64,000 nucleotides of DNA from Deltaproteobacteria bacterium (GCA_029555025.1 JAKPTZ010000115.1:24898-88897); one strand, 5' to 3'. Positions 7,281-36,567 are shown, counted from the stretch's first letter. Numbers and translations are program-made. Notes: generated by a model from the sequence alone, not told the origin.

Positions 7281-7308
7281 TGGGTACTCCACCCCACGGG
7301 GTCGCAAA

Positions 7309-8175
7309 TCACCTGAAAAGCAGAAGCGGAGGGCCGTCGGGCGTAACCGTGATTCTGCTGCCGAAATCAACGGGAACCGCCGTTCGCCGGCCGTCAAGGT
7401 AAACCCCGGATCGAATCATGCGTGACTGCAAGACGATGCCTTCATCCCCCAGCATTCCGGAAACAAGCCGGTATCTGATCGAGTCCGGACGGCACCCGAA
7501 TGGTTCCCGGACAAGGTACTGCAGCCGGGTATCCTGCAGATCCTGAATCGAACCGCCCGCAGAGAGCATGGCGCCTGTTGAGCCGGCCGCCGTCGAGATC
7601 CAGACCCCCGAGCTCTTGTGGGTTTCGGACACCCCGGCCACCGTAATGACGTACCTGGATGTCGCCGACGGCACGACGTTGGCGAAAAGCACGTCGTTAA
7701 GGGCCGGCTGCGGGTGCCTTCTGCCGTCGATCGTGACGAAGGCGCGGGTCAGGCTTGCGGGCTGCTTCCGGTCGGAAAGGACAAGTTCCAGCAGCGACGG
7801 AAATCCTTCGGAGGTCGTGGCGCAGAAATGGCCGAAACTTGTCGATGGGGACGAGTTGACCGCCAGCAGCGGGGTGTTTCGGATGAACCTCGCGATGTCC
7901 AGGACGGTTCCGTCGCCGCCGACCGCAATCACGAGGTCGAATTTCTTCGACACGTTGTTTCTTCTGCGGGCGTGCGTGACTTCGATCCCGGCCTGCTCGA
8001 GTGTCCGCTTCACAACGGAAATCGTTTCAACAGTCTTGCGGTGTCCCGGTTCCTCGTCCGCCACCAGCGGATCCCCGGCATCAAGCAGCCGCTTCAGGGG
8101 CTGTGTCGCGTGCATGGATCTGCCCACGTCCATCAGCGTCGTCTTGGTGGCAAGCAGAACCCTTGAAATCTTCAT
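7309..8175 (-). CDS. nadK: NAD+ kinase
   Basis: GGDGT motif (DLVIAVGGDGTVLD), NAD-kinase fold, length 288 aa. The start abuts the stop of the upstream Lon-like gene (3-nt gap). Confidence 0.85.
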   Translation of the reverse strand: MKISRVLLATKTTLMDVGRSMHATQPLKRLLDAGDPLVADEEPGHRKTVETISVVKRTLEQAGIEVTHARRRNNVSKKFDLVIAVGGDGTVLDIARFIRNTPLLAVNSSPSTSFGHFCATTSEGFPSLLELVLSDRKQPASLTRAFVTIDGRRHPQPALNDVLFANVVPSATSRYVITVAGVSETHKSSGVWISTAAGSTGAMLSAGGSIQDLQDTRLQYLVREPFGCRPDSIRYRLVSGMLGDEGIVLQSRMIRSGVYLDGRRTAVPVDFGSRITVTPDGPPLLLFR

Positions 8176-8177
8176 CG

Positions 8178-10610
8178 TCAGGTCGTTTTCCGCTTTCCGG
8201 CCTTTCCAGGTCGGTCCCGTTCGGGCTTTTCCTTCTCGCTCATCGCCTTGACCGCAGCGTCGGTCGCGGCGAAAACCGAACCTTTTTCCCAGGTTCCGTC
8301 TTCCTGCCTGGTTCCGGCCGGCAAGCCGGTCATGATTTCGACCACTTCCTCGATGCGGCGAGCCGCCCAGATGTTGAAGCGTCGTTTCCTGACGGCCTCC
8401 TCGACCTCCGGTTCCAGAACCAGGTTGCGCTGGTTCGCGGCAGGAATGATCACACCCTGGCGTCCGGTCAGTCCGCGTTCACTGCAAATCTTGAAAAAGC
8501 CCTCGATCTTCTCGTTGACGCCACCGACCGCCTGCACGTCTCCGGTCTGGTTCAGGCTTCCGGTGACGGCGACGTCCTGCCTCAGCGGAATCCGGGAAAG
8601 CGAGGACAGAACCGCGCAGAATTCCGCGCATGAAGCCGAGTCCCCGTCGATGCGTCCGTACGACTGTTCGACCGTCAGGCTGACCGTGATGCCGGGAACG
8701 CGATTCTTTGCGAACATGTCGCCCAGAAGGCCGGAAATGATGAGGACGGCCTTGTTGAAGGTGTTTCCGGAAAGCCTTGCCTCGCGTTCGACGTTGATGA
8801 TTCCGGCGGAACCCCGGAATGATTTGGCGGTGATCCTCAGAGGCATCCCGAAAGTCTGGTCGGCCATCTGATAAACGGCAAGTCCGTTGATGACGCCGGG
8901 AATCGCGCCCTCGGAATCGATGATGACGGTTCCGTTCAGGACCATCTCGACGCCCTTGTCCCAGGAGAGCGAAACGCGATCCTTGCGCTGGCGGCGCGCG
9001 GCGATGATGTGCCTGGCGTCGATGATTGCCGATCCTTCCTGGCGTGCCAGGTGATCCGCCTCGATCAGCAGGTTCAGAACCAGATTGAACTGAAGCGTGA
9101 GTCTGTCGGACGCGTCGGCCATCCGCATGGAGTATTCGATCACGTCCGCGACGCCGGCCGACGAAACGGGAAGCAGTCCGTCACGTTCACTGGTCGTGGC
9201 TATGAACCTTGCATATTCCTGGAGCATGTCGTCGGAAACGGCGACTTCCGAGTCGAACTCCGCCTTGATCTGGAAGGCTTTTCCAAATTCCTCGTCTGCC
9301 TCGTGCAGAAGCTGGTACAGGAAATTGCTGCCTACCAGGATTACCTTGCAGGACATCGGGATCGGATTCGGCCGGATGGTCGTGGTAGGCAGGAACTGGT
9401 AGGCCTCGCCCATCTCGGCAATCTCCAGCAGCCTTTGACGCAGCACGGTCTTCAAGGCCTCCCACGCAAACGGATACGACACCAGTTCCCGGGTATGCAG
9501 AATCAGGAATCCGCCGTTTGCCCGAAGCAGAGAGCCAGCCTTGATCATCGTGAAATCGGTTGAATAGATGCCGTTTTCAACGCGCTTCTCGATGCGCCCG
9601 ACAAGGTTGTGGTAAGTCGGGGTGTTTTCGAAGACGACCGGCGCGCCCCTGACTTCGGAGTTGTCCACCAGCAGGTTGACCTTGTATTCGGTCATTGCCG
9701 CTTCGATGAGTTGTTTGGTCATGCCGTCGTCGGAGTCCTCGGCCAGGAATCGCGGGATGTTTTCAAGAATGCTGGCCCTGACCGCCTCCAGGTGGGCTAT
9801 CACTTCCGGACAAGATGAGTATTCGGCCAGCAGGGCCTTCATCGACTCATCCATCGTTTCGGCACACAGGCGGTTGTTGGCCACCTGAACCTTCGCATGG
9901 ACAATCTGCTCCGCTTCCTTGTTCTTTTCGAAAAACGCCGCGATTGCAGGCTCGATTGCCCTGCGGTTTTCATCGATGGTCTTCTTCTGGGCGTCCGAAA
10001 GCTTCGCGTATTCCTTGTTGCTGATGGCCTCGCCGTCAACCACGGGTATGGTGACCAGGCCTTCCTTTGTCTGCTTCACCTGGAAGTTGTTCCTGCCTGC
10101 CACCTCGTCCAGCCGTTCGAAGGCCTCGTTTTCGATGGCCAGTCCCTCGTTCAGGATTTCCTGAAGCGTTTCCTGGTGTTTCTGGGTGTGAAAGGCCCTG
10201 GGCAGGTTCTTCTTCAGCGAAGAAATGAACTCGTCCATCTGACCGCGGAACTGAAGCCCCTTGCCTGCCGGCAGGCTGAAAACCCTTGGGGTTTCGGGGT
10301 GCTTGAAGTTATTGACCATGCACCAGTCGGGGGGCGTGGGCATCTGCCTGGATGCCTCATCGACAAGTCTTTTGAGAAGGCTCGACTTGCCGGTTCCGGA
10401 GGCACCTGAAACGTAGATGTTGAAGTTTCGCTTCTGGATCGAAAGGCCGAGTTCGAGAGCTTTCTGGGCCCGGGCCTGCTCAACGACCCCGACAAGCTTC
10501 TCGACGTGCCTTGTGCTCCGGAACTTGAATATGGAAGGGTTGATGTGGCGATGTACCTGCTTCCAGCCCAGGCGGCAGTCTTTTTCAGCGGACGGTTTTT
10601 TCGCGGCCAT
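8178..10610 (-). CDS. Lon-like protease (LonB/BrxL-like): N-terminal AAA+ P-loop domain plus C-terminal S16 Lon protease domain
   Basis: Walker A NIYVSGASGTGKSSLLKRL. Lon catalytic Ser in GRIDGDSASCAEF (equivalent to DGPSAG) and Lys in VGGVNEKIEGF. The putative Walker B region reads GGFLILHTRE, with no canonical hhhhDE. Confidence 0.8.
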   Translation of the reverse strand: MAAKKPSAEKDCRLGWKQVHRHINPSIFKFRSTRHVEKLVGVVEQARAQKALELGLSIQKRNFNIYVSGASGTGKSSLLKRLVDEASRQMPTPPDWCMVNNFKHPETPRVFSLPAGKGLQFRGQMDEFISSLKKNLPRAFHTQKHQETLQEILNEGLAIENEAFERLDEVAGRNNFQVKQTKEGLVTIPVVDGEAISNKEYAKLSDAQKKTIDENRRAIEPAIAAFFEKNKEAEQIVHAKVQVANNRLCAETMDESMKALLAEYSSCPEVIAHLEAVRASILENIPRFLAEDSDDGMTKQLIEAAMTEYKVNLLVDNSEVRGAPVVFENTPTYHNLVGRIEKRVENGIYSTDFTMIKAGSLLRANGGFLILHTRELVSYPFAWEALKTVLRQRLLEIAEMGEAYQFLPTTTIRPNPIPMSCKVILVGSNFLYQLLHEADEEFGKAFQIKAEFDSEVAVSDDMLQEYARFIATTSERDGLLPVSSAGVADVIEYSMRMADASDRLTLQFNLVLNLLIEADHLARQEGSAIIDARHIIAARRQRKDRVSLSWDKGVEMVLNGTVIIDSEGAIPGVINGLAVYQMADQTFGMPLRITAKSFRGSAGIINVEREARLSGNTFNKAVLIISGLLGDMFAKNRVPGITVSLTVEQSYGRIDGDSASCAEFCAVLSSLSRIPLRQDVAVTGSLNQTGDVQAVGGVNEKIEGFFKICSERGLTGRQGVIIPAANQRNLVLEPEVEEAVRKRRFNIWAARRIEEVVEIMTGLPAGTRQEDGTWEKGSVFAATDAAVKAMSEKEKPERDRPGKAGKRKTT

Positions 10611-10692
10611 CGTCTGGCTCCAGAACGGTTTCGCGAAAGCCTATCACGATTGACGGAAAGCGGGGGACTCTCAAAGTTTGCCTTCCGGGGGA

Positions 10693-12318
10693 TCACCTTG
10701 CGGAGCCCTGACGGAGTTCAGGTGGAAGGTATCGCGAAAAGGCCCCGGCACCGGAGTTGGAACCGAAGCTTGCCCCCGATTCCAGCCCGCTTCCGGCGGT
10801 GGCCTTGACAGCGACCCCGCCGCGGGAGGCGTCGGTGACCGTCCAGTTCCTGCCGCCGATGATGACGTCGGCACCGGCGGCCGTCCTGGCCGACACCATG
10901 CCGACGGTGCGCCCTGTCCCCGCATCCACGACTTTGATCGAGGCGGAGTCGGCGATATTGGAGTGTATGCGTCCCCGTTCGCCCATGTCCATCAATCTTG
11001 ACGAGGCCCGAAGCACTTCGCCGGCGCTTTCGTCCAGGAAGCCTTCGGTACGCAGGTGATCGACGATCGCGTCGATGACCGGGCCAGGTGCGACGGGGTC
11101 AAGGATTCTTCGGATCGTGGCGCGTCGAAGTCCCTTTCTGTTTTCAAACAGAAGGGAAAATATCTGCTGAACCGCGACCGACAGGTCTGGCAGCCTTTCT
11201 GACTGCGGGAATGCCTGTTCGACGACGTCATTCATCAGCATCGCGAATCTTCCTTCATCCCCCGGTCCGTCCGGAACGAATATGGCCCTCATGCCGTCGC
11301 GCCGCCTGCAACCGCGGCCGACCCTCTGCTGGAGCGATGCGACCGTTTCGGGCGCTCCGAACAGAACGACTGCATCGACGTCACCGATATCGACCCCGAG
11401 TTCCATGGTGGATGTCGAGACCAGGATGCCTGCCTCGAAGTACCTGAAAGCCTTTTCAACGTCCTCGCGTTCCCGGCGGGCGAGGCTGGCGTGGTGCACC
11501 ATGACTCTCTCGGCCGGCCACGGGCCCGTCCTGAGCACCAGGGCCGCGGTTTCCTCGGTCTTCTTCCTGGTGTTGCAGAATATTATGGCCTTCGTGAGCC
11601 GTTCCGAACGCAGAAGCGCGAGTGCGGACGGGATGTCGGGGGACACCGTGGCATCCAGAGGCCTTCTTCTGTCATCCCGAACGACCTCGGGCCTTTCACC
11701 GAAAAGTCGCGTTCCCAGGCCGGCGGGATCCCCGACGGTCGCCGTTACGGCAATCAGCCGGGGCCTGGCCGCCGACCGTTTCATCTGAATCCGTCGAATC
11801 AGTATCCGCAACTGGTCGCCGCGCGCGGTACCGTCCATCAGGTGCGCCTCGTCGATGACGATCGCGTGAAGGTTGTCGAAAGCCGCCGGATGGCGGCAAA
11901 GCAGCGAATCGAAAGACTCCGGCGTCGTAATCAGGAGGTCGGTGTGATCCCTTCCAACCGGTGAAGGGCGGTCGCCGGTCCTGACCCGGCTGCTCATCTT
12001 CATTGCCGCGGCCGGCTCGCGAACGCGGTTTTCGATGTCGTTAGCCAGCGCCCTGGTGGGAACGATGTACAGAATGCCAACCTGCGGACGGGGATCTTCA
12101 ATGGCGGCCATTTCCTCGAAAAGCGGGGCGAGCACGGCCTCGGTCTTGCCGGAAGCGGCGGGCGCGACAACGACGGCATCCCGCCCCGAGGCAATGACCG
12201 GAATCGCAAGTTCCTGGATCCCGGTAAGGTTGCCGAAGCGGGCCAGAAATGCCGGAAACGCGCGCGGAAGGGATCTGGCGGCATCCATCCGGCTGAATCT
12301 GTCGATGCCCGGTTTCAA
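10693..12318 (-). CDS. Lhr-like (BrxHI-like) DEAD/DEAH-box superfamily-2 helicase
   Basis: Motif I VAPAASGKTEA, motif II VIDEAHLM, motif VI QRVGRGCRR. 541 aa, so shorter than canonical Lhr. ATGA start/stop overlap with the upstream ATPase gene. Confidence 0.8.
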   Translation of the reverse strand: MKPGIDRFSRMDAARSLPRAFPAFLARFGNLTGIQELAIPVIASGRDAVVVAPAASGKTEAVLAPLFEEMAAIEDPRPQVGILYIVPTRALANDIENRVREPAAAMKMSSRVRTGDRPSPVGRDHTDLLITTPESFDSLLCRHPAAFDNLHAIVIDEAHLMDGTARGDQLRILIRRIQMKRSAARPRLIAVTATVGDPAGLGTRLFGERPEVVRDDRRRPLDATVSPDIPSALALLRSERLTKAIIFCNTRKKTEETAALVLRTGPWPAERVMVHHASLARREREDVEKAFRYFEAGILVSTSTMELGVDIGDVDAVVLFGAPETVASLQQRVGRGCRRRDGMRAIFVPDGPGDEGRFAMLMNDVVEQAFPQSERLPDLSVAVQQIFSLLFENRKGLRRATIRRILDPVAPGPVIDAIVDHLRTEGFLDESAGEVLRASSRLMDMGERGRIHSNIADSASIKVVDAGTGRTVGMVSARTAAGADVIIGGRNWTVTDASRGGVAVKATAGSGLESGASFGSNSGAGAFSRYLPPELRQGSAR

Positions 12319-13811
12319 ATCGCGTCGCCTTCGCCACCGGAAACGACCATCTGTTCCACGTCGCCATCGGGATAGAAGCGGACGTAGTCGAGGGCTTCGA
12401 TCACGGACTTGATGAACGTTCTGGTCGATTGTATCCGGTCGGCCGTGTACAGCAGCCTGAACAGCCTGTCCTGGCGCTTCTTCTCCAGTTTCACGCCGTA
12501 CGTGGTGTCATAAGTGCGGCATATCCTGCGGAAAAGCTCGCGAAGCTGATCCATTGAAAGGACATCGACCTGGACCCTTGTAATCGTTTCCCTGGTCCGG
12601 CTGAATTCATCCTGGAGCGTGCCCGGAGTAAGCGCGAACGCGACCTTCAGGGCACCGGGAATTCCGGTGGTGTATCTGACGGGGTGATGTGCCGAGTATA
12701 TCAGGCCGGATACCGCGCCCTGGATTGTTTCGGCTCGAATGAGTTCCTCGTCCATGAGTACGTCGTCATCGTTGGCTGTAAGGACAAGCCCGCGGAAGAA
12801 GTTCATTCCGCGCTGGGCCTGGTATCGGTACATTACGCTTCCGGCCACTTCCGCCTCGTCCAGAAGAACCAGCAGGCCCATCATTCCAAGGACTTCCGAT
12901 GCTGCCCTGGCAGTTGCCGAAAGTATGTTGCAGTAGATGTTGGCACAGGTCGAGTAATCGTAAAGCGTCTTCTTGCGCCCGATCCGGCCTTCCCCGCGGG
13001 CTTCGATGAAGTCCCATTCTTCCTCGGTAAGTCCTGGCCTTTCGTGCGGCTCCTCCTCCTGGAGCCGCTCCAGGACGCTTGCAAAAAGCCAGTGGTCGCC
13101 AAGGACATCCCGCCAGCCCGGCCGGGACGCCACTTCACGCCAGAATCCACGGAAGTTCAACACCCGGTCATCAACGACGGCCTTGAATCCGGTGACCAGA
13201 TGCCGGTAAGCCTTCTTGGGAAAAGCTGCCGATGCCTCGGATGGATCGAAACCCGCCATGGCGACCGCGTAGCCCAGTTGCTCCGCTTCGCCCGCCAGGA
13301 ATCGCAGCAGGTGGCTCTTGCCCGCGCCGTAGGCCCCTTCCACCAGGGCTGCGCCCTCGGCATGGTCGTGAAGGAATTCCATCAGTTGCCCGACTTCATC
13401 CTTGCGCCCGACCGTCCACTCCCCGATCGATGAAGATGGCACGATCCCAAGCCTGAAGGCCTCTATAGCCATGCTTGCACTGACCGGCCGGTTTTCCGGC
13501 AGCATTCGATACACCGGAGCCCGATGTTTCCTGGCTCCTGCAGGTTCCTCGCTCGCTGGAGCCTGTCCCCCAAGCAGGCGGAGGATTGCGTCAAGGGATG
13601 TGCTGGAGGGTGCCGTCGATCGAACAGCCGGAGCCTCGTCTTCGACGAGCTTCAGCCCTTCACCGGCACGGACAAGTTCCCGCGCCGGGATCCACAGGCT
13701 GTAAACCCCGAAGTTGACACGGAATTCAAATCCGCCAATCCGTGAACCAAGCACCGTGCCGTCGCCATATGTGGCATGCGTCACGGCATCGCCCTTTTCG
13801 AACCTATTCAT
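12315..13811 (-). CDS. BrxD/DUF2791-like P-loop ATPase with an N-terminal UvrD/PcrA-C-terminal-like Tudor motif
   Basis: Walker A GAYGAGKSHLLRFL and Walker B LLVLLDEAE. The N-terminus reads MNRFEKGDAVTHATYGDGTVLG, the G-D-x-V-x-H-x-x-(F/Y)-G-x-G-x-V motif of the UvrD/PcrA C-terminal Tudor-like domain. Paralogous to the next gene. The start is ambiguous: ATG at 13811 (2 nt after the upstream stop) or 13832. Confidence 0.7.
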   Translation of the reverse strand: MNRFEKGDAVTHATYGDGTVLGSRIGGFEFRVNFGVYSLWIPARELVRAGEGLKLVEDEAPAVRSTAPSSTSLDAILRLLGGQAPASEEPAGARKHRAPVYRMLPENRPVSASMAIEAFRLGIVPSSSIGEWTVGRKDEVGQLMEFLHDHAEGAALVEGAYGAGKSHLLRFLAGEAEQLGYAVAMAGFDPSEASAAFPKKAYRHLVTGFKAVVDDRVLNFRGFWREVASRPGWRDVLGDHWLFASVLERLQEEEPHERPGLTEEEWDFIEARGEGRIGRKKTLYDYSTCANIYCNILSATARAASEVLGMMGLLVLLDEAEVAGSVMYRYQAQRGMNFFRGLVLTANDDDVLMDEELIRAETIQGAVSGLIYSAHHPVRYTTGIPGALKVAFALTPGTLQDEFSRTRETITRVQVDVLSMDQLRELFRRICRTYDTTYGVKLEKKRQDRLFRLLYTADRIQSTRTFIKSVIEALDYVRFYPDGDVEQMVVSGGEGDAI

Positions 13812-15093
13812 AGATATCGTCCGGGTCGGCATCTTCGCCGGGCGAAAGCATTCGCGTGGCGAATTCCTCGTCGATCACGGTGTCCGGTTCGAACCGCAGC
13901 GCGTGCATTGCCCGCACGACGGCCTGGACGAACATTCTCTTGTACCCTATGTCGCCAAAGGCGCGTTCGGCGGTCGCATCCGCGAGAACCCTTACCAGAT
14001 TGCGGGTCTGATCGGCCGGCATGCGGAACTGGTAGGCGTTTTCATAGACGCCGCACAGTTTTCTTCCGATGTCGTTCATCAAGGTCTTCGGATCCCTTGC
14101 GATTCGATCAAGCCGGACTTTGACGCCGGTGGGGTTCGTGTAGTCGAATACCGTCTGAATTCTCTGGCGAAGCGCTTCGTAAGCCGGAGATCGGCCCTCG
14201 GTCAGGAACTGCTCGTTTGGAATGGCATAAAAGACCATCGTGTTCGCGAACGAGGAAGCCCCGCACTGATCAACCATCTCGCGCAGGTTGGCCAGCATCA
14301 GTTCCTTCTGCTTGGAAGTCATCGAGCCGGCCTGTTCGGCCTCGTCGAACAGGATGATGATGCCGCCGAAGCGCAGGTTCCGAACCCACGTCACCAGTGA
14401 TCTGATCGTGGCGAACGCCTGGGATCTGTCAATCGGCTGCAGAACCCCTCCAGCCTTGTGCGACAGCCGATCCCAGCCATCGACGGTAAGGTACTGCAGC
14501 ATTGCGTCGAACTGATCCTGGTCATTGCGGGTCAACGCTTCAATGGCAAGTCGGACGGCCTTCCCGAAATTCGGGTTTTCGCAGCCACGAACCGAATCGG
14601 CCGCAATTGCCCTGATGCGATCTTCCAGTTGTTCGCCGGCGATGCCTTCCTCTTCGGCGATGGCGGTCTTCATGTCGTGATAGACCGCCTTGATGAAGGC
14701 GCCGAGCCCGCGCTCCCCGCCGGTCAGGAGTTCATCCGGCGTCAGTGGACGCATCAGGTTGACCGCGATGGACTTGTAAACCATGTCCAGGCGGTGGAAC
14801 GGCGACGATTCCGCCGAAAGCGGGCAGTATGTGACCAGGTAGTCATGACGCCAGGCAAGCTCGCGGACGCTGTACAGGAAGTGTGTCTTGCCGCCGCCAT
14901 ACGTTCCGACGACGACTTTGAACGACGACCCGCCTTCGCGGACGAATGACTTGAGGTAATCGTCCTCGATCACCTTCAGGTACCCGTCAAGGCCCGAGGA
15001 AAAGAACTGGAAACCCCATTCGGGCGGGGTTCCGGACGAACCGACCACTTCGATAATGTGGCGGGCCTGCCTGGCGGTCAGGTTGTCAACCAT
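13804..15093 (-). CDS. BrxD/DUF2791-like P-loop ATPase (paralog)
   Basis: Walker A VVVGTYGGGKTHFLYSV and Walker B IIILFDEAEQ. Starts MVDNLTARQARHIIEVVGSSG. The ATG at 15093 has a GGGAG RBS. The longer ORF to 15243 would overlap the upstream gene by 118 nt. Confidence 0.7.
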   Translation of the reverse strand: MVDNLTARQARHIIEVVGSSGTPPEWGFQFFSSGLDGYLKVIEDDYLKSFVREGGSSFKVVVGTYGGGKTHFLYSVRELAWRHDYLVTYCPLSAESSPFHRLDMVYKSIAVNLMRPLTPDELLTGGERGLGAFIKAVYHDMKTAIAEEEGIAGEQLEDRIRAIAADSVRGCENPNFGKAVRLAIEALTRNDQDQFDAMLQYLTVDGWDRLSHKAGGVLQPIDRSQAFATIRSLVTWVRNLRFGGIIILFDEAEQAGSMTSKQKELMLANLREMVDQCGASSFANTMVFYAIPNEQFLTEGRSPAYEALRQRIQTVFDYTNPTGVKVRLDRIARDPKTLMNDIGRKLCGVYENAYQFRMPADQTRNLVRVLADATAERAFGDIGYKRMFVQAVVRAMHALRFEPDTVIDEEFATRMLSPGEDADPDDIYE

Positions 15094-15124
15094 CTGAAAT
15101 CTCCCGTTCCTGAGTCGTCCAAAC

Positions 15125-15988
15125 TCAGGCAGTAACCTTAACAAACCGGAGCGTTGCGAAGTTAACGCCCTCAAGGATTCCAGGTCTCGGCACCCAGAGG
15201 TGATCCCCGGCATTCCTTGTCTGGGACATCGTCGCCACGTCAAGCCTCAGTTCCATTCCCCGGATGATCCGGTTTCTGAGCCTTGACAGATCCGCCGCGA
15301 ATTCCACCCTTCCGTACGACCTGAAGGTCTCCTTTCGCGGATCAATCAGGAAGGCCGGCTTCTGGCGCATAAAGGCGATTTCCGGGATCAGCGACGTGAC
15401 CGGCACGCGGCCCCCGGACTCGGCACCGGTGCGTATCACGGCCAGCCGGTAAGCCTTTTCAAGTTCGGCAAGGAAAGCCGGCTCGTCGAAAGAATCCGGA
15501 AAGAGCCTGCCGTTCTGTTCCCGGATCTGCGCGCAGATGTCTTCGGGATCCAGAGAAGCCGCCGCCAGCCTGTATTTGCCGGGTCCAAGCCATATGGTGC
15601 ACAGGCCCTTTGAACCGAATGTGAATTCCAGCGAGAAAGGCCCGGCCGTCAGCGTGGGAAGGTTTCCGGACACCTTGAAGTCTTCTTCGTTCAGGCGTTT
15701 TGCGACCGCTCCCGCAAGCAGCGCCTTCTCGCGATCAAGGCGGCTGCGGGATTCCGACAGCGTCGCCGCAATCGCCGCCTTCATTGCCGCGGCGCCCGTT
15801 TCCAGCCCGGCGATGTCCCCGATTGCCCGCAACGCCCTTTCGGCCATGTCGATTGATGATGCCAGGTTCCCCTTGCGGTGTTCCCTGGAGAATTCCTCAA
15901 CCGACTTTCCGGCGTTGGCGGCAGCCTTGATGGCCTTCAGGAACGTCTTGACCTGTTCTTCCATGGGCTTCCCCCGGGGTTGCTTCAT
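15125..15988 (-). CDS. Hypothetical protein (287 aa), first gene of the ATPase/helicase/protease operon
   Basis: Long ORF on the coding strand of the operon. No motif recognised. A 31-nt gap separates it from the downstream ATPase. Confidence 0.5.
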   Translation of the reverse strand: MKQPRGKPMEEQVKTFLKAIKAAANAGKSVEEFSREHRKGNLASSIDMAERALRAIGDIAGLETGAAAMKAAIAATLSESRSRLDREKALLAGAVAKRLNEEDFKVSGNLPTLTAGPFSLEFTFGSKGLCTIWLGPGKYRLAAASLDPEDICAQIREQNGRLFPDSFDEPAFLAELEKAYRLAVIRTGAESGGRVPVTSLIPEIAFMRQKPAFLIDPRKETFRSYGRVEFAADLSRLRNRIIRGMELRLDVATMSQTRNAGDHLWVPRPGILEGVNFATLRFVKVTA

Positions 15989-16074
15989 CCGATCCGGGTC
16001 GCCCCGGCCGCGCAGTATTATAAGGCCAAATCAATTTATGGCGATTGAAAGCGTGTAACCTGTCGGGAACTTCG

Positions 16075-17076
16075 TCAGCGCGCGGCCTCGCGGGACAGGA
16101 GGTCTTTCCATTGATCACCGAAGAGTCCATCCAGCATCCTGCGGAAATCGCCCGGAAGCGGGGCGGTGATATCCATCTGTTGTCCGGTGACGGGGTGGGC
16201 GAAGCGAATGTTCCAGGCATGAAGGGCATGACGCTTGATCATTTCCAGGGCGGCCACCTCGGATTCGGGGCGGCTTCCCCTGCGGGGCCATCCGCGGCCA
16301 TAGACGCGATCGCCGACAATCGGGTGCCCGGCCTCGGACAGGTGAACCCTTATTTGATGTGTTCTTCCGGTCATCGGTTTGGCCGCCACGAGCGCGCACA
16401 GGTTGGCGCGCATAAGCGTCCGGTATCCGGTCACCGCGTCGCGGCCGTCGCGCACGCGCCCGGTGAACTGGCGTCTGTCCCCGGTTCGTCTGCCGAAGGA
16501 TGTCTCGATGAGTCCCTGGTCGTCGATGCCTGGTCCAAGCACCACGGCCAGGTACGTCTTGTTGATTGTGCGCTCGCGGAACATGTCCCCGAGAAGTTCG
16601 TGTGTGTGATTGTCCCTTGCGACGATCATCACGCCCGAAGTGTCCTTGTCCAGCCGGTGTACTATTCCCGGCCTGTCCGGTCCGCCGAAGTTCGAAAATG
16701 TGCGGCCGGACGCCAGGAGCTGGTTCACAAGTGTTCCCGAGCCGTGTCCCGCGCCCGGGTGAACGACCAGTCCGGCCCGCTTGTTGATCACCATCAGGAA
16801 TTCATCCTCGAAAAGGATTTCCAGTTCCGGGCCACCGTGTTCGGGAGCGGGACCGGCATGGTCGGACGGCGGCGGCGGAGTCAGTTCCACCTGCATTCCG
16901 GCTGCAAGCCTGAAGCCTGCCGGTCGTTGCCTTCCGTTGACCAGCGCCGCCCCGTTCTTGATCAATTTCTGGGCGAGCGACCTGGAGATGGCGGGGAATC
17001 TGGCCGCGATGACCATGTCAAGCCTTGCGCCGTTTTCGTGATCCCCCGTTTCAAATCGCAGCAGATCTTCTTTCAT
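16075..17076 (-). CDS. rluD: RluA-family 23S rRNA pseudouridine synthase (RluD-like)
   Basis: N-terminal S4 domain (RLDMVIAARFPAISRSLAQKLIKNGAALVNG) and the catalytic HRLDKDTSGVMIVA motif. Confidence 0.85.
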   Translation of the reverse strand: MKEDLLRFETGDHENGARLDMVIAARFPAISRSLAQKLIKNGAALVNGRQRPAGFRLAAGMQVELTPPPPSDHAGPAPEHGGPELEILFEDEFLMVINKRAGLVVHPGAGHGSGTLVNQLLASGRTFSNFGGPDRPGIVHRLDKDTSGVMIVARDNHTHELLGDMFRERTINKTYLAVVLGPGIDDQGLIETSFGRRTGDRRQFTGRVRDGRDAVTGYRTLMRANLCALVAAKPMTGRTHQIRVHLSEAGHPIVGDRVYGRGWPRRGSRPESEVAALEMIKRHALHAWNIRFAHPVTGQQMDITAPLPGDFRRMLDGLFGDQWKDLLSREAAR

Positions 17077-17309
17077 CGGCCAAATCCGGGTTGTCCATTT
17101 TCGGACAAGTGAAAAAGTACGTCGCGGATTGTAACATGGATCCGTCCGGGCCGGGCCGGACGCCTTCGCGCGCCATGCCGTCAGCCAGAGTGCCGGCCCT
17201 TGTCTGGCGGCGCGTTTCGGGCGATCATGCCGGCTGAAGCGGTCTGAATGTTGTGCGGGGATTGTCTGCCGGGCGTCGCAAGTCGATCGCCGGGCATCGG
17301 AGATTCCAG

Positions 17310-20300
17310 ATGCGAACCGGGTCTTCCGGGATGTTGCCGGTCGTTGCGATGGCGTGTCTATTTGTGTCGTCGTGCGGCAGCCATGTGGAGAAGGCCGATA
17401 TCGGGGGCTCCTGCCGGGAAGACTCCGATTGTCAATCCGCCCTCTGTTTCGCAGACGTATGCATCGATCCCCTGGCGGACCAGGATTGGGACGGTCTTTC
17501 GGCGGGCGATGAAGTTGAAATCGGGCTGGATCCGTTTCACCCGGACAGTGATCGCGACGGCATTCCCGACGGCCTGGAAGTGGGCCCCGAGCTTGCGACT
17601 CCGGCGGATTATGACGGGGACGGCGTCATCGACGCTCTTGAGTCCGCTTTTTCGGATTCTGACGGGGACTGCCTTCCGGATCAGTATGATCCTCTCGATG
17701 CGCTCGGGCCGGCCGGCTCAAGTCAGATGGTGCCGGTGCTGTGCATGACAGCCGGGGTCTGCGGGGCCGCAATGAACACCATTGTCGCTACCTGCGACGG
17801 CTCGAAGGTAACGTGCAGCTATGAAGGCGTGCCAGGCTGGAACGCCGCGGAATGGATGTGTGACGGAAAGGACAACAACTGCGACGGTCGAACCGACGAA
17901 GGTTTTCTTCACGAAGGCTTGTCCATCGGACTTCCCTGCCTTGGGGCAGGAAGTTGTGGCCCGGGTATCGTCGAGTGCGATGACTCGGGCTTTTCGACCA
18001 GGTGTTCGTCAAACCCCGGCGCTTCTGGCGACAGATCCATGCCCGAGGTGTGCGACGGTCTCGACAACGATTGCGACGGCTTGACCGACAACGGCATGTC
18101 GTGGAAGGGCGTGCCCCTCGGGGAACGTTGTGACGGCGAAGGCGAGTGCGGCATCGGCAAGGTCGAATGCCTGGCCGACAGGACGGCTTCCTGTTCAACC
18201 ATGAAGGGTGGAAGTCACGAACAGATCCAGGAGGAATCCTGTGACAACCTTGACAACGACTGTGATGGACGAACCGACGAGACATTTTTCGGCAACGCTT
18301 CCGAACTGTGCGTTCCCCGCGGCGTCTGCGCCCTGTTCCCCAACATGATTTCGTTGAAGTGCGAGCAGGGGATCCTGAAATGCGACTTCAGTGCTGTGCC
18401 TGGGTATTCGGGAAGTTCCGAGATGTTCTGTGATGGACAGGATGACGATTGCGACGGGCTGGTTGACGAGGAACTGTCGTTCGCGGTGACCGAACCTGGC
18501 GCCGTGATAAGGCTTCCCGGCCAGTCCTGCGGTTCGGGCGCCTGTGCCGGCGGGGTCGTCACGTGCTCGCCGAGTTCGATGTCCGGCATGTGTTCCACCA
18601 CGCCCCTTGCCGCGCCGGAGAAGTGCGATGGAATCGATGACGACTGCGACGGGTACATAGACAACGGTTTCGCCCTGAGTTGGAAGCCGGCGCTTGAAAC
18701 CATCATGGACAGGGAGCCGCAGGCGCTTGTTTCGTCGCGGATGGCCGTGGTCGAGTATTCCCTGGAGGATCCGCCTGAACCAGGTGAACCGCCTGCCGGC
18801 ATATATGTATGCGGCGGGGCCGTTGGAAGTCCTGAGAACGGTTCGTCCGGGATTTCAAGGCGTTGCTGGCTGTACAGCTTTGATTCGCATCGTTTCGATC
18901 GACTTCCCGACGGGCCCGAAGTCGATTCGGGGGCGATGGTTCATGACAGGGCGGGCGGAAGCCTGCTGATGGTGGGTCGTCTGTTCGCGTCCGGCGAAGT
19001 CGCCGTTTTCCGGATGAACGGAATCGATTTCGGATGGAGCAGGCTGCCCTGGGAACTGGAAAGTGGCGAGGTTCTTGCCGCCGGAGTGGATCCGGTTGAA
19101 AACACCCTGAATATCCTCACGAATGGTGATTCCGGGCTTCTGGTGAGCATGGTCGGGCTGTCCGATGGCTCCGTCCTGACCGTTCAGGCGGGCGAGCGCG
19201 TCTCTGCCGGCTCCTTTGCCGCCGGTTCGCCCTCCGGGGGGTTTGTCCTGTTTCATGCCTGCAACGAGCTTGCCGGCACTGTGGTCGAACATGTCTCGCC
19301 GGACGGGCAGGTCAACGGGCTGCCGCTTGCAGGACAGAGTCCATGCATGTCCTTCGGCGCGGCGGTCATGCCGATCCCGGGACGCATCGTCGCGATTGAG
19401 GGCAGGGCACTTGACGGCTCGGTCCAGGCCACAAGGGAATTCCTGCTGGGCGATGACCTGTGGCACCACGAAAGGATCACGGTTCCCGGCGGCCAGGGAT
19501 CCGTCATGCATCCCGCGATGGCCTCCTCTGGCGACACCGTCTATGCATTTTCCGGGGAGTATGGTGATGGAGGGGCACTGCGGCGTGTGATCCGGCTGGA
19601 TCGCGAATCGACGGAATGGCTGGTTGACAGCTTCGTAAGCGGTCCATCTCCCAGGGCGGGCGGCGTTGCGTTCGTTTCGCGCCTGACGGCGGCGGCCTAT
19701 TTCATTGGCGGCTATTCGGATGAACCGGGCGGGCCTCAGCCAGTCCAGGATGTGTGGAAGATTGATCTGGTCAATCCGCGGATTGGACAGATTGCGGTGT
19801 CGGGCGAACCAGGGGCGGTTATAGGTGCTGCTGCGGCCATCAATGATTCCGGCCAGACCGCCTACATTTTCGGGGGGCTCGATTCGCCGCCGGGGCCCGA
19901 CTCCAGGCCGGTTAGCAGGTTCCTTCGGTTCAACTGCATTCAGTCGAGGTTTGATTCGATTCAGTCGGGGGAAGGCGGTCCGACGGCACGTTATGGACAC
20001 TCGCTTGTCTGGGCCGGTGACAGGTTGCTTCTTTACGGCGGCCTGAACGACACCGGTTTCCTTTCCGATCTCTGGTCCTGGGCTCCGGACGAAGGCTGGA
20101 TCTTCATTGGATATTTCGAACTCAGCTATGGCCACCAGGCGTTCTGGGACAATCCCGGCAAGCGCATGCTGGTCGTCGGGGGCAGGCCAGGTGGGGGCCT
20201 TCGCGCATACTATCCCGCCACATCCACGTGGAAAAGCCTGCTGTCCGGGGTTCTGTTCGATTCGTATGAAGGCCACGGCTGGTTTGACGAGCAATCCGGC

Positions 20301-20522
20301 AGCGTGCTTTATCTTTCATCGACATCCAGCGACGCGGTGGTCGTGACTTTCCTTGAAGACGGGCTTGTCGATCAGGTCATCCCCGGACTGCAGCCGGATT
20401 TGATCGATGCGTTCGTGGTTTATGATCCGTTCGGGCGCCGGGCCATGATGCTCGGTGGCAGGGATCCCTCGAACGGGACCGTCGGAACCGTTTCGCAAAT
20501 CGATCAGTCCTGCGGGCGATGA
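17310..20522 (+). CDS. Large lipoprotein with MopE-like putative metal-binding CxDxxDNDCDG repeats, DxDxDG calcium-type motifs and C-terminal Kelch/beta-propeller repeats
   Basis: Lipoprotein signal (…MLPVVAMACLFVSSCG). At least 5 copies of C-D-G-x-D-N-(D/N)-C-D-G-x-(T/V/I)-D-(E/N) (CDGKDNNCDGRTDEGF, CDGLDNDCDGLTDNG, CDNLDNDCDGRTDETF, CDGQDDDCDGLVDEE, CDGIDDDCDGYIDNGF). C-terminal Kelch-like YGHSLVWAGDRLLLYGGLNDTGFLSDLWSW. Start chosen at ATG 17310; ATG 17331 is an alternative. Confidence 0.75.
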   Translation: MRTGSSGMLPVVAMACLFVSSCGSHVEKADIGGSCREDSDCQSALCFADVCIDPLADQDWDGLSAGDEVEIGLDPFHPDSDRDGIPDGLEVGPELATPADYDGDGVIDALESAFSDSDGDCLPDQYDPLDALGPAGSSQMVPVLCMTAGVCGAAMNTIVATCDGSKVTCSYEGVPGWNAAEWMCDGKDNNCDGRTDEGFLHEGLSIGLPCLGAGSCGPGIVECDDSGFSTRCSSNPGASGDRSMPEVCDGLDNDCDGLTDNGMSWKGVPLGERCDGEGECGIGKVECLADRTASCSTMKGGSHEQIQEESCDNLDNDCDGRTDETFFGNASELCVPRGVCALFPNMISLKCEQGILKCDFSAVPGYSGSSEMFCDGQDDDCDGLVDEELSFAVTEPGAVIRLPGQSCGSGACAGGVVTCSPSSMSGMCSTTPLAAPEKCDGIDDDCDGYIDNGFALSWKPALETIMDREPQALVSSRMAVVEYSLEDPPEPGEPPAGIYVCGGAVGSPENGSSGISRRCWLYSFDSHRFDRLPDGPEVDSGAMVHDRAGGSLLMVGRLFASGEVAVFRMNGIDFGWSRLPWELESGEVLAAGVDPVENTLNILTNGDSGLLVSMVGLSDGSVLTVQAGERVSAGSFAAGSPSGGFVLFHACNELAGTVVEHVSPDGQVNGLPLAGQSPCMSFGAAVMPIPGRIVAIEGRALDGSVQATREFLLGDDLWHHERITVPGGQGSVMHPAMASSGDTVYAFSGEYGDGGALRRVIRLDRESTEWLVDSFVSGPSPRAGGVAFVSRLTAAAYFIGGYSDEPGGPQPVQDVWKIDLVNPRIGQIAVSGEPGAVIGAAAAINDSGQTAYIFGGLDSPPGPDSRPVSRFLRFNCIQSRFDSIQSGEGGPTARYGHSLVWAGDRLLLYGGLNDTGFLSDLWSWAPDEGWIFIGYFELSYGHQAFWDNPGKRMLVVGGRPGGGLRAYYPATSTWKSLLSGVLFDSYEGHGWFDEQSGSVLYLSSTSSDAVVVTFLEDGLVDQVIPGLQPDLIDAFVVYDPFGRRAMMLGGRDPSNGTVGTVSQIDQSCGR

Positions 20523-27792: not shown

Positions 27793-27910
27793 AGCATTGC
27801 CGTTCAGGCGTTGAACATACCGACGAATCCAGTGAAGATGCGGTCGGGGAACCGAAACGGCCTGGCGCCCGGCATGAAGGCACCCACAAACGCGGAAATT
27901 GTCGCTTAAG

Positions 27911-27983
27911 CGACCCCAACGGGAGTCGAACCCGTGTCGCGGGCGTGAAAGGCCCGTGTCCTAGACCACTAGACGATGGGGTC
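27911..27983 (-). tRNA. tRNA-Glu (anticodon TTC)
   Basis: Minus-strand sequence GACCCCATCGTCTAGTGGTCTAGGACACGGGCCTTTCACGCCCGCGACACGGGTTCGACTCCCGTTGGGGTCG. Cloverleaf with a 7-bp acceptor stem and anticodon loop CTTTCAC. Near-identical architecture to E. coli tRNA-Glu. Confidence 0.85.
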
Positions 27984-27995
27984 ACGGAAAAAAAG

Positions 27996-28068
27996 TGAGC
28001 CCAGCGAGATTTGAACTCGCGACCAACGGCTTAAAAGGCCGCTGCTCTACCGGCTGAGCTATGGGCCC
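27996..28068 (-). tRNA. tRNA-Lys (anticodon TTT)
   Basis: Minus-strand sequence GGGCCCATAGCTCAGCCGGTAGAGCAGCGGCCTTTTAAGCCGTTGGTCGCGAGTTCAAATCTCGCTGGGCTCA. Anticodon loop CTTTTAA. Resembles E. coli tRNA-Lys. Confidence 0.85.
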
Positions 28069-29533: not shown

Positions 29534-29572
29534 TCCTCCAGGGGCGTGTCATGCGACGGTTTGTGTGGTTTG

Positions 29573-29644
<72 letters not shown>

Positions 29645-29917
29645 CGCAGTCACCAAAGCGAGGGATAAATTACATTCCGCGCATGCCTGCTGTCAAGAGA
29701 TTTTTGCGTGGCGAACGACTACTGGCGTGGAGTTATTGAAGGACGCGGTGCGTGCTTCCGGATACGCCCCCGCTTGCGGCGCCGCCAACCAGGTAGATGT
29801 ATCCGAAGGCACGGGTCAGTCCGTAATAGCCCGGCCTTCATTCCGGCCTCAAGATGTCCGTTGACACCATGCGTTACATGGAAGAATCTTTACACAGTCT
29901 TAATCAGGGGTGTCCCC

Positions 29918-33834: not shown

Positions 33835-36567
33835 ATGAAGCGTTTTCAATATGTCATCTGTCTGACCTTTGCGGTGTCTGGATTTGCCGGCTGCGGTGGC
33901 GGCAATCAGATTGGCGACGTGGTCGGGGATGTTCCGGACGAGGATAGGATTGTCGAGTTGGACGTCACGCATGACGAAGGTCAGCCTGACGAAGGCAGGG
34001 ACATCGGAAGGGACGAAGGCGAGCCTGGCGATTCCGTGGATGACCGCTTCGTGGATGATTCCGACGTAAACGGCGATATCGACGACATCGACGGCGGTGA
34101 CGAGTCCGGGGGCGATACCCCTGAAACGGACGGGTGCCCCGGCGAGACGTGCGAGCCGTGCCCGGACGACGGCCTGTTCTGCACCGAGGAGTATCGCGAT
34201 TCGCTGGGCGAATGCCAGATTCGCGTGAAGCCCGAATTCTGCATGATTGGCGGCGAATGCCTTTTCGAGAACCAGCCTTCCCCCGATGACATGTGCCTGG
34301 CTTGCAGGCCGGCCGTCAGCGGTTCCGAGTATTCCCCCGCGGAAGGGATGCCGTGCGACGACGCGGATCCGTGCACTGCCGGCGACACCTGCGATGCGGA
34401 CGGCATTTGCCAGCCGGGCGCCGGTTTCGGATGCGATGACGACAACGAGTGCACCATCGACCGTTGCGACCCCAATTTCGGATGCACGAACACCCCGCGG
34501 GCTTCCACGTGCGACGACCACGATTCGTGCACGTACCAGGATCAGTGCAATGTCCAGACCGGCGTCTGCAAGGGTTTCCCGGTCAACTGCAACGATGGTA
34601 ACGAATGCACCCGTGACTATTGCGATTCGTTCGACGGTTGTCAGCACGAGCCCATTTCGAAGGCTTGCAACGACTTCGACGGGTGCACCTTGAATGATAT
34701 GTGCAATGAAGACGGCGTCTGCCAGGGCACTCCGATGGACTGTTCGGACGGTATTGAATGCACCGTCGATTCCTGCATGTCCGGCGTCTGCCTGAACGAC
34801 TGGCATTACGGCCCGTGCAACGACGGCGACATGTGCACGGATAACGACTTCTGCAATGGTTATCACGAGTGTGCCGGCATCCCGAAGACATCATGCGACG
34901 ATTACAACGTCTGCACCACGGACTACTGCGACCCGGCGGTCGGATGCGTGAACGAATTCAATACGGTCGAGTGCGAGCCCGATTCGGCATGCGAGATAAA
35001 CGGCGTGTGCGCCGGCGGCGTGTGCGTCGGCCAGCCAAGGAACTGTGACAAGGGCAATCCGTGCATGATCTATTCGTGCAATCCGGACACGGGCTGCAAG
35101 GAAATTCCGACAACCGGCGTGTGTGACGACCACAACGCATGCACCATCAACGAAAATTGTTCGACCGGAGCATGCATTCCGCCTGAAGGGCCGGCCGGCG
35201 TCACGAACTGCGACGACTTGAACGACTGCACCGTTGACAACTGCGTTCCGGCCGTCGGTTGCGTGCATACCCCGCAGGAAGGCGAATGCCAGGATCCGAA
35301 TCCGTGCAGCCTGACCGGAACCGGTTTCTGCAGGAACGGCGAGTGCATTTCGAACGTCAGGGACTGCGATGACAACCAGCCGTGCACGCTCGACACGTGC
35401 GACGGCGCGGGCAACTGCATCCATCCGCCGATTTCGGGATTCTGCGATGACGGCAATCATTGCACGTTCGACGAGGTCTGCATCGGCGGCGACTGCATCG
35501 AGGGAAAGAAGGTAGATTGCAACGACTCAAACGTATGCACGCTGGACGAATGCAACCCGGATTACGGATGTGTCTATACGCCGACCGGCGGTTCGTGTTC
35601 CGACGGTGACGTCTGCACCATCAACGACGGGTGCGCAAACGGCACCTGCGTCGGGACGGTCAGGGCATGCGAGGACTACAACGTCTGCACCGACAACGGC
35701 TGCAACAAGACTTCGGGATGCTTCTTCACGCCGAATTCGGTGGAATGCGACGACTTCAACATCTGCACATTCGACGACATCTGCGGCGCCGGTGAATGTC
35801 ACGGCGTGTCGGTGTTCGAGGATCCGGCGACCAAGGCCGCGACTTTGACTTATGGCGTCAACGGCAATCTCGGCCAGGGCGTCGATGTTGATGACGACCC
35901 GTCCACATGCGCGCCGAAGGGCAGTTGCGTCCAGGGTATCGACAACGCGTTTTCCAGGCTGCACTGGCTGTTCAACACCGAGATGTTGAACGCGTCGTCG
36001 GACGGCTCGTGGTCGCTGCTGCTGGAACACGACGGGTTGAAGGTGAACGGCACTGCGTATAACCTGAACCTTTACTGGGGCGCCAGGATTGACCCGGTGA
36101 CCTGTGACCCGACGACTTCCGGATGCAACTACGGCGTCTATACGTCGTCGTTGTCGCCAACCTGCGGGCCGCTTGACGTGTTCGACAACGCGGTGATCAA
36201 CGGCACGAAGCTGAAGGCGGGGGGTGCCACTTACGAAGTCCCGGTCAGCATCGTCTTCGGCGACACCAGGCGCGAACTGGTGCTTTACCGGGCCAAGGTC
36301 ACTGCCAACGTGTCGCTTGCGGGCGGCAAGGTCGTTGGCGGGGCCGGCGCGCTTGGCGGGGCATTCGTTGTCCAGCAGTTGGTCGAAGCGCTTGAATCGA
36401 TGCCGGAAAGCGCGTTCCTGCCGCGTTACAACAAGGAAATCATTCTTGCGTATATCGACATATACCTGAAGCCGGACATCGATCTTGACGGTGACGGAAC
36501 CGATGAGTCGGTTTCCGTCGGAATGCCGTTTTCGATTGTGACAGGTCACCTCATTGGCCCGATTTAA
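33835..36567 (+). CDS. Large lipoprotein composed of ~20 Myxococcus-type cysteine-rich repeats (C-x-D-x-N-x-C-T-x-D-x-C)
   Basis: Lipobox FAVSGFAGCGG. Repeats such as CNDGNECTRDYCDSFDGCQHEP, CDDYNVCTTDYCDPAVGCVNEF and CDDHNACTINENCSTGAC reiterate through ~600 aa. Acidic D/E-rich linker after the signal. Confidence 0.8.
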   Translation: MKRFQYVICLTFAVSGFAGCGGGNQIGDVVGDVPDEDRIVELDVTHDEGQPDEGRDIGRDEGEPGDSVDDRFVDDSDVNGDIDDIDGGDESGGDTPETDGCPGETCEPCPDDGLFCTEEYRDSLGECQIRVKPEFCMIGGECLFENQPSPDDMCLACRPAVSGSEYSPAEGMPCDDADPCTAGDTCDADGICQPGAGFGCDDDNECTIDRCDPNFGCTNTPRASTCDDHDSCTYQDQCNVQTGVCKGFPVNCNDGNECTRDYCDSFDGCQHEPISKACNDFDGCTLNDMCNEDGVCQGTPMDCSDGIECTVDSCMSGVCLNDWHYGPCNDGDMCTDNDFCNGYHECAGIPKTSCDDYNVCTTDYCDPAVGCVNEFNTVECEPDSACEINGVCAGGVCVGQPRNCDKGNPCMIYSCNPDTGCKEIPTTGVCDDHNACTINENCSTGACIPPEGPAGVTNCDDLNDCTVDNCVPAVGCVHTPQEGECQDPNPCSLTGTGFCRNGECISNVRDCDDNQPCTLDTCDGAGNCIHPPISGFCDDGNHCTFDEVCIGGDCIEGKKVDCNDSNVCTLDECNPDYGCVYTPTGGSCSDGDVCTINDGCANGTCVGTVRACEDYNVCTDNGCNKTSGCFFTPNSVECDDFNICTFDDICGAGECHGVSVFEDPATKAATLTYGVNGNLGQGVDVDDDPSTCAPKGSCVQGIDNAFSRLHWLFNTEMLNASSDGSWSLLLEHDGLKVNGTAYNLNLYWGARIDPVTCDPTTSGCNYGVYTSSLSPTCGPLDVFDNAVINGTKLKAGGATYEVPVSIVFGDTRRELVLYRAKVTANVSLAGGKVVGGAGALGGAFVVQQLVEALESMPESAFLPRYNKEIILAYIDIYLKPDIDLDGDGTDESVSVGMPFSIVTGHLIGPI

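Follow-up and report, generated by a model that had tools for sequence, protein, structure and literature searches.

In bacteriophage exclusion (BREX) systems of types 2 and 6, the ATPase BrxD and the helicase BrxHI have been called a "tightly linked dyad"; BrxD, a stand-alone ATPase for which no additional domains are described, is classed as ORC/Cdc6-type and has been proposed to act as a loader or activator of BrxHI (PMC12839542). A second described system of this kind is Shango (SngA-SngB-SngC), for which anti-phage activity has been established experimentally, and the ORC/Cdc6 and Cdt1 helicase loaders have also been named among the closest known systems. Here, we analyzed a 64,000-nucleotide (nt) stretch from a Deltaproteobacteria bacterium (GCA_029555025.1, JAKPTZ010000115.1:24898-88897), referred to below as the window, with all positions counted from its first letter. 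An initial annotation had described five minus-strand genes between rluD and nadK as one orphan BREX-accessory-like operon coding for a protein of unclear function, two BrxD-like ATPases, an Lhr-like helicase and a Lon-like protease. The five open reading frames (ORFs) are indeed present, flanked by rluD and nadK. Our analysis favors, with a probability of about 0.6, a division into two units: a four-gene ATPase-helicase module (15964-10693) that probably interferes with foreign DNA and a lonC-nadK pair (10610-7309).

The four genes of the module and their closest relatives

ATPase 1 is encoded by the second gene of the module (13804-15093, minus strand, 429 amino acids [aa]); a 479-aa ORF starting at TTG was regarded as an over-extension. 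The protein matches Pfam PF10923 (BrxC_BrxD) over its full length (3.7e-38, aa 7 to 410), and its PADLOC matches are BrxD (9.4e-37) and SngB (2.3e-14). The Walker A (GGGKTH) and Walker B (FDEAE) motifs are intact, and their residues are invariant in the family alignment. No relative was found in the PDB. More than 570 relatives were collected, with identities of 45 to 50% across phyla and domains. ATPase 2 is encoded by the third gene (12315-13832, minus strand, 505 aa), which always follows the ATPase 1 gene. It matches PF10923 only between aa 121 and 213 (4.9e-15) and the PADLOC BrxD model with 7.6e-11; the motifs GAGKSH (Walker A) and LLDEAE (Walker B) are preserved among 21 members of the family. 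Both ATPases exceed the broader PF10923 threshold, and the BrxD/DUF2791 assignment of the initial annotation was borne out. Both fail the cut-off of 350 bits of the NCBIfam BREX_BrxD equivalog NF033438 (125.7 bits for ATPase 1 and 41.5 bits for ATPase 2). Judged by these matches, ATPase 1 is a full-length BrxD-like (ORC/Cdc6-type) AAA+ ATPase, and ATPase 2 is a second, divergent BrxD-like AAA+ ATPase.

The N-terminus of ATPase 2 carries a motif, GDxVxHxxYGxGTV...W...EL, at approximately aa 11 to 55 (13668-13802, minus strand). It is conserved in bacterial and archaeal members of the family, and a regular expression recognized it in at least 50 of 85 ORFs. Pfam models gave no match within aa 1 to 120, and the link to a known domain came only from a custom profile compared with PDB sequences. 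The eight best matches of this profile all fall on the C-terminal Tudor or RNA polymerase interaction domain of UvrD/PcrA (7egs_B, 1e-3; 6yi2_A, 1.1e-3; 5dma_A, 6e-3; followed by 9dqs, 1qhh, 7egt, 1pjr and 4c2t; E values from 1e-3 to 0.3). The segment appears to be a UvrD/PcrA-type Tudor domain, each single hit being weak. Five loci from Desulfofervidaceae, Syntrophobacter and related organisms (L004, L035, L042, L043 and L044) contain the two ATPase genes alone, with the Tudor motif kept; gene 1 and the helicase gene are not nearby. These ATPase-only loci suggest that the ATPase pair can work alone or with partners encoded elsewhere.

The last gene of the module (10693-12318, minus strand, 541 aa) follows the ATPase 2 gene in most loci. 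Its product contains DEAD (3.9e-31) and Helicase_C (2.6e-19) domains, and it matches the PADLOC models BrxHI (2.3e-73, model positions 21 to 519 of 698) and SngC (2.6e-56); the C-terminal part of the BrxHI model is not represented. Motifs I (ASGKTEA, with GKT) and II (VIDEAH, with DEAH) of superfamily 2 (SF2) are present. The best relatives in the PDB are the Lhr core (5v9x), MrfA/YprA (6znp) and Lhr (7lhl). In agreement with the initial annotation, the protein is classified from its sequence as a putative short Lhr/BrxHI-like SF2 (DEAH) helicase. At one locus (L006, 11227-14124), ATPase 2 and the helicase are fused into a single 959-aa protein, and genes for an Eco57I-like methyltransferase and an SNF2-PLD protein precede the locus.

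Gene 1 (15125-15964, minus strand) had been assigned a product of 287 aa starting at 15988. This start was rejected since the homologues begin at the second methionine, which gives a protein of 279 aa. The protein has no match in Pfam, NCBIfam or PADLOC. Structure prediction placed a three-helix bundle at the N-terminus, then a beta-sheet and, at the C-terminus, a winged-helix-like domain, the last of these predicted with confidence. Assignments as TerB/SngA or as BrxA/BrxB were discarded because hidden Markov model matches were lacking and the folds differ. A word-indexed search yielded 24 relatives, and for a time the gene looked like a gene of a single clade. This picture was overturned by phmmer searches of the fetched loci and by an exhaustive profile search, in which the family comprised 684 cluster representatives, nearly all of about 280 aa; the gene 1 protein scores 50 to 150 bits in distant phyla. 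Gene 1, which the initial annotation had treated as an extra gene, is the universal first gene of the module.

In PADLOC and Pfam, the module matches best to the BrxD-BrxHI pairs of BREX types 2 and 6, with which it shares a DUF2791/BrxD-type ORC/Cdc6-like AAA+ ATPase tightly linked to an Lhr-like SF2 helicase. It differs from BREX in lacking PglX, PglZ, BrxC and PglW, in having two ATPases (one of them with the Tudor domain) instead of one, in its additional conserved 279-aa first gene and shorter helicase, and in an ATPase 1 that scores below the NCBIfam BrxD cut-off. With the core genes absent and ATPase 1 under the equivalog cut-off, the module appears to lie outside BREX. Shango likewise is a stand-alone operon, in which a small protein comes first and is accompanied by a BrxD-like ATPase and a DEAD/DEAH helicase, and neither Shango nor the module has a modification enzyme or an obvious nuclease. 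SngB and SngC were only the second-best PADLOC matches, the module being closer to BrxD/BrxHI. In contrast to Shango, a three-gene operon, the module comprises four genes and its ATPase is duplicated, and the gene 1 protein, with its predicted helical bundle and winged helix, shows no SngA or TerB match and is not TerB-like. The missing TerB protein, the four genes and the Sng scores, which are weaker than the Brx scores, would place the module outside Shango as well. PADLOC-DB v2 contains no dedicated model for the four-gene module, and neither a stand-alone double-BrxD module nor a Tudor-bearing BrxD is described in the searchable literature, including a 2026 survey of BREX. In the most fitting reading, the module stands alone and is related both to the BrxD-BrxHI pair found in BREX types 2 and 6 and to SngB-SngC of Shango.

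Distribution and genomic context of the module

A scan of 185,579 genomes (one genome per species) returned 198 relatives, from which 80 loci were kept, and the window proteins were compared by phmmer with all ORFs of these loci. The order gene 1-ATPase 1-ATPase 2-helicase is maintained in most of the 80 loci. The bacteria that keep it belong to Myxococcota, Desulfobacterales, Nitrospinae, Gemmatimonadota, Acidobacteriota, Chloroflexi, Planctomycetota/Brocadia, Poribacteria and Cloacimonadota, and the archaea belong to Methanosarcinales/ANME/Methanoperedens. Nearest-neighbor identities cross phyla and domains: Cloacimonadota and Methanoperedens share 73%, whereas two Dehalococcoidia share only 55%. 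Sequence comparison thus indicates that the module spreads horizontally among bacteria and archaea. One pair calls for caution: ATPase 1 of a 3.7-kb contig binned as Micrarchaeota (L053) is 94% identical to that of Candidatus Brocadia pituitae (L048), for which a binning error is more likely than a recent transfer.

No fifth gene recurs among the neighbors of the module outside Myxococcota; an apparent cluster of neighbors from six loci turned out to be an artefact of ABC ATPases, with ABCE1 as the representative. The initial annotation had left room for a BREX system lying just beyond the window, with related clusters always beside pglX and pglZ. This is not the case: among the 25 commonest neighbor families in about 60 related loci, PglX, PglZ and BrxC are not recurrent. 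Therefore, the module stands alone and is not the edge of a BREX locus. Genes with links to defense do occur in the vicinity. A type I restriction-modification (RM) system and an OLD-family gene adjoin the module at one locus (L005), mad2-like N6-methyltransferases account for 6 of 104 neighbors, and DRT, GajB, RM and SNF2 genes are found at some module loci. The association with defense islands is only modest, many loci lying among housekeeping genes. In Brocadia (L048, 14173-14919), the helicase gene is followed at a distance of 44 nt by a SIR2-family gene of 249 aa, which may be an ordinary sirtuin or a local effector. At another locus (L073), the module is flanked by two paralogous sulfatase genes (7535-9022 and 14256-15740) of the opposite strand, an arrangement that looks like an insertion between them.

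Within the Myxococcota clade to which the window belongs, relatives of gene 1 at 46 to 64% identity show the same chromosomal arrangement: Kelch/MopE, rluD, the five genes, nadK, GH4 and ClpP. The identity of rluD is 55 to 71%, and the module evolves at rates similar to those of its flanks in this lineage. The GC content is uniform, and the region resembles the sequences on both sides. These observations indicate that the module has been vertically inherited and fixed between rluD and lonC-nadK in this Myxococcota lineage. A neighbor-joining tree of LonC also points to repeated loss of the module within the clade.

The lonC-nadK pair and the remaining window

The fifth gene (8178-10610, minus strand, 810 aa) codes for the Lon-like protease, which had been interpreted as BrxL-like. 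BrxL combines an MCM-type AAA+ domain and N-terminal DNA-binding domains with a Lon domain that lacks the Ser-Lys dyad, and the protease does not conform to this architecture. Its Pfam domains are LonC_helical (1.5e-12), AAA_32, LonB_AAA-LID and Lon_C, and it matches MtaLonC/TTC1975 in the PDB with 2e-77 versus only 7.3e-4 for the PADLOC BrxL model, where the match is confined to the Lon domain (aa 563 to 731). An identification as BrxL was ruled out by the LonC architecture, the Ser-Lys dyad, the PDB match and the weak BrxL score. LonC signatures include the Ser-Lys dyad (GDSAS, GGVNEKIEG), the CX3GLX(G/E) insertion in the form CSERGLTG and a Walker-B-like GFLILHT without Asp or Glu. Common to the window protease and MtaLonC, an ATP-independent Lon-like chaperone-protease, are the helical insertion of LonC, the Ser-Lys dyad, the CX3GLX(G/E) motif and a Walker B motif without the catalytic acid. 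The Walker A motif of MtaLonC, however, is degenerate (GPPSLGKH), whereas that of the window protease is canonical (GASGTGKS). The LonC subfamily has been reported to lack ATPase activity and to carry out ATP-independent proteolysis (PMC3391209). The window protein and its orthologues have His in place of Asp in their Walker-B-like motif (L[IV]LH) while Walker A is canonical, unlike in the biochemically studied MtaLonC. The motifs of the window-type LonC suggest nucleotide binding without hydrolysis.

The tight packing of the five genes had been taken as a sign of a single operon with spacers of 2 to 80 nt or ATGA overlaps. The compact arrangement itself was confirmed, with junctions of +31 nt (gene 1 to ATPase 1), -29 nt (ATPase 1 to ATPase 2), -4 nt (ATPase 2 to helicase) and +82 nt (helicase to lonC). 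The only 2-nt spacer, however, is that between lonC and nadK (8178/8175), the NAD kinase gene (7309-8175, minus strand), whose orthologues carry PF01513. Since the tight packing runs on into nadK, it sets no boundary around a group of five genes. An overlap of 4 nt between lonC and nadK occurs in 8 of 12 loci, and the two genes appear to be translationally coupled. Between the helicase gene and lonC, the gap is always 33 nt or more and widens to about 780 nt at two loci (L018, 13679-14464; L019, 14459-15238), where a small gene or a regulatory region may be located. A consensus scan of the helicase-lonC spacer of the window revealed neither a promoter nor a terminator.

Among the module loci, phmmer matches to Lon, NadK and RluD are confined to the Myxococcota clade in which ATPase 1 is at least 58% identical, and two loci (L012 and L024) contain the module without lonC or nadK. 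For a survey of LonC itself, metagenome contigs were scanned with a LonC alignment, followed by tblastn. All 10 LonC genes of at least 50% identity in this sample have nadK downstream, and five of them have the module upstream. A lonC-nadK pair without the module was found at L089 (where 9 kb upstream were available), L094 (8.5 kb), L097 and L098. In the LonC tree, module-free loci occupy two positions inside the nadK-linked clade. LonC homologues at 40 to 47% identity stand alone in unrelated contexts, and none of about 70 more distant LonC loci in the metagenome sample has the module or nadK. At a single locus (L021, 6167-12245), lonC directly follows the ATPase 2 gene, between an aminotransferase gene and metK; the helicase gene, rluD and nadK are absent there. 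Taken together, gene order and sequence comparison argue that lonC-nadK (10610-7309) is an ordinary lineage-specific gene pair, whose adjacency to the module would reflect synteny and not a shared function.

The remaining genes of the window are of the housekeeping type (SecDF, YajC, GcpE, ClpP, RelA/SpoT, rluD and nadK). Searches of nine ORFs of more than 600 aa and of 37 non-overlapping ORFs covering the rest of the 64 kb detected no PglX, PglZ, BrxA/B/C or RM genes, as the initial annotation had stated. No Rfam element or tRNA gene was detected in or adjoining the region. A promoter-like site, TCGCCA-16-TATAAT (16017-16044, minus strand), lies in the spacer between rluD and gene 1. It agrees with 10 of 12 consensus positions and is a pattern match only, the consensus scan of the region having returned three sites versus 1.8 expected. 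Three tRNA genes (Glu-TTC, Lys-TTT and Gly-GCC) are located at 27910-28068 and 29571-29645, about 12 kb from the module, and neither an integrase nor repeats were found that would tie them to it. Large repeat proteins are encoded at 17253-20522 (MopE/Kelch, 1089 aa; a Kelch/MopE gene is a conserved neighbor of rluD across the clade), 33835-36567 (Dicty_CTDC, 910 aa) and 45836-51199 (Lamin-tail/Dicty_CTDC, 1787 aa). Outside 7300-17100, single ORFs gave generic PADLOC matches to a sigma-54 activator (RtcR/PspF-like, 1e-120), a radical SAM protein (pVip model, 1e-17), PDC-S33 (1e-8) and SduA (5e-7), which form no recognizable defense system.

Possible functions of the module

We infer that the module is probably a helicase-loading nucleic-acid surveillance system. 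In this model, ATPase 1 and ATPase 2 would assemble into a hetero-oligomer, and the winged-helix protein together with the Tudor domain would guide it to a nucleic acid or nucleoprotein target. There, the oligomer would load or activate the 3'-5' SF2 helicase so that the target is unwound or stripped. Interference with foreign DNA, as in Shango, would be the likeliest purpose. A defense-like role of this kind, to which we assign about an even chance, is consistent with the kinship to BREX and Shango, the rarity of the module, the identities that cross phyla and domains, the variable neighbors without a recurrent fifth gene, the RM genes adjoining some loci and the repeated loss. Several observations weigh against it. 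The module core contains no nuclease, toxin or modification enzyme; in large contigs, housekeeping genes make up most of its surroundings, and searches of PLSDB plasmids, GenBank phages and IMG/VR viral contigs did not detect the module. In the Myxococcota lineage it behaves like a core gene set. For the proposed docking, each single Tudor match is weak (E of about 1e-3), and it is the consistency among the eight that counts. As for the division into two units, the lonC arrangement at L021 is the sole one favoring a link between the module and lonC; LonC may thus have a functional tie to the module in this clade.

A repair or transcription-linked role of the module has a chance of about one quarter. 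The corresponding explanation, a tentative one, is that the module serves housekeeping genome maintenance, at least in this lineage, for example, in transcription-coupled repair or in the removal of R-loops or stalled complexes, with the Tudor domain docking on RNA polymerase and the Lhr-like helicase acting there. It would account for the stable syntenic place among core genes over a deep divergence (rluD at 55 to 71% identity), the native composition and the lack of an effector or toxin domain. Moreover, the Tudor domain belongs to the type through which UvrD/PcrA interacts with RNA polymerase, and the closest solved helicases, Lhr and MrfA, are repair helicases; most neighbors are housekeeping genes, and the module was not found on phages or plasmids. 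However, a maintenance function fits poorly with a rare and patchy distribution (198 relatives in 185,579 species genomes), with similarities that cross domains, with repeated loss within the clade and with RM genes next to some module loci. The characterized relatives, BREX and Shango, are all defense systems, and archaea have retained the Tudor motif although their RNA polymerase is unlike that of bacteria.

The unit proposed in the initial annotation, a five-gene ATPase-helicase-protease system in which the Lon-like protease would be the BrxL-analogous effector of a methylation-independent defense, is improbable. In its favor, at least 12 related loci have lonC 3' of the helicase gene and in the same orientation, lonC stays beside ATPase 2 at L021 in a different chromosomal context without nadK, and the protease has retained its Ser-Lys dyad. 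The comparative data have nevertheless largely refuted it: LonC is not BrxL and, outside one clade, is missing from every module locus, lonC-nadK is found with no module at L089, L094, L097 and L098, which are nested among module-bearing lineages, and the module occurs without lonC at L012 and L024. Furthermore, at least 33 nt and up to about 780 nt separate the helicase gene from lonC, whereas lonC overlaps nadK, and the LonC motifs are identical with or without a linked module. What stands of this proposal is its stand-alone ATPase-helicase part; the protease, found with nadK whether or not the module is present, does not belong to it. Far less probable still is an orphaned or split piece of a type 2 or 6 BREX system with pglX, pglZ and brxC elsewhere in the genome. 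The ATPase and the helicase do score best against the BrxD and BrxHI models, but the BREX core is absent from the 64 kb and is not among the recurrent neighbors in about 60 related loci. ATPase 1 reaches 125.7 bits where the equivalog demands 350, two conserved genes of the module have no counterpart in BREX, and the canonical BrxD of a Streptomyces plasmid is only 26% identical.

The two-unit reading, with a module that probably acts on foreign DNA, leads to a more far-reaching conjecture, which we regard as rather unlikely in its full form. The module could represent an as yet unnamed, widespread class of helicase-loader-like surveillance systems of bacteria and archaea, in which a heteromeric ORC/Cdc6-type ATPase pair would dock through the Tudor domain on transcription or replication complexes, the winged-helix protein would read DNA, and the Lhr-like helicase, once loaded by the pair, would dismantle foreign or aberrant nucleoprotein without a nuclease. 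In one Myxococcota lineage, such a system would have become domesticated as part of the core genome.

The analysis removes a false lead, as the Lon-like gene appears to be an ordinary LonC gene paired with nadK and not a BrxL-like effector. No part of BREX types 2 and 6 is less well understood than BrxD-BrxHI; a minimal, self-contained relative with two ATPases, a Tudor domain and a winged-helix partner but neither methylase nor phosphatase nor nuclease would constitute a simpler system for asking what an ATPase-helicase pair does alone. Fixation in the core genome of one lineage, as opposed to sporadic horizontal occurrence elsewhere, provides a natural contrast for studying how such a module is retained or domesticated.

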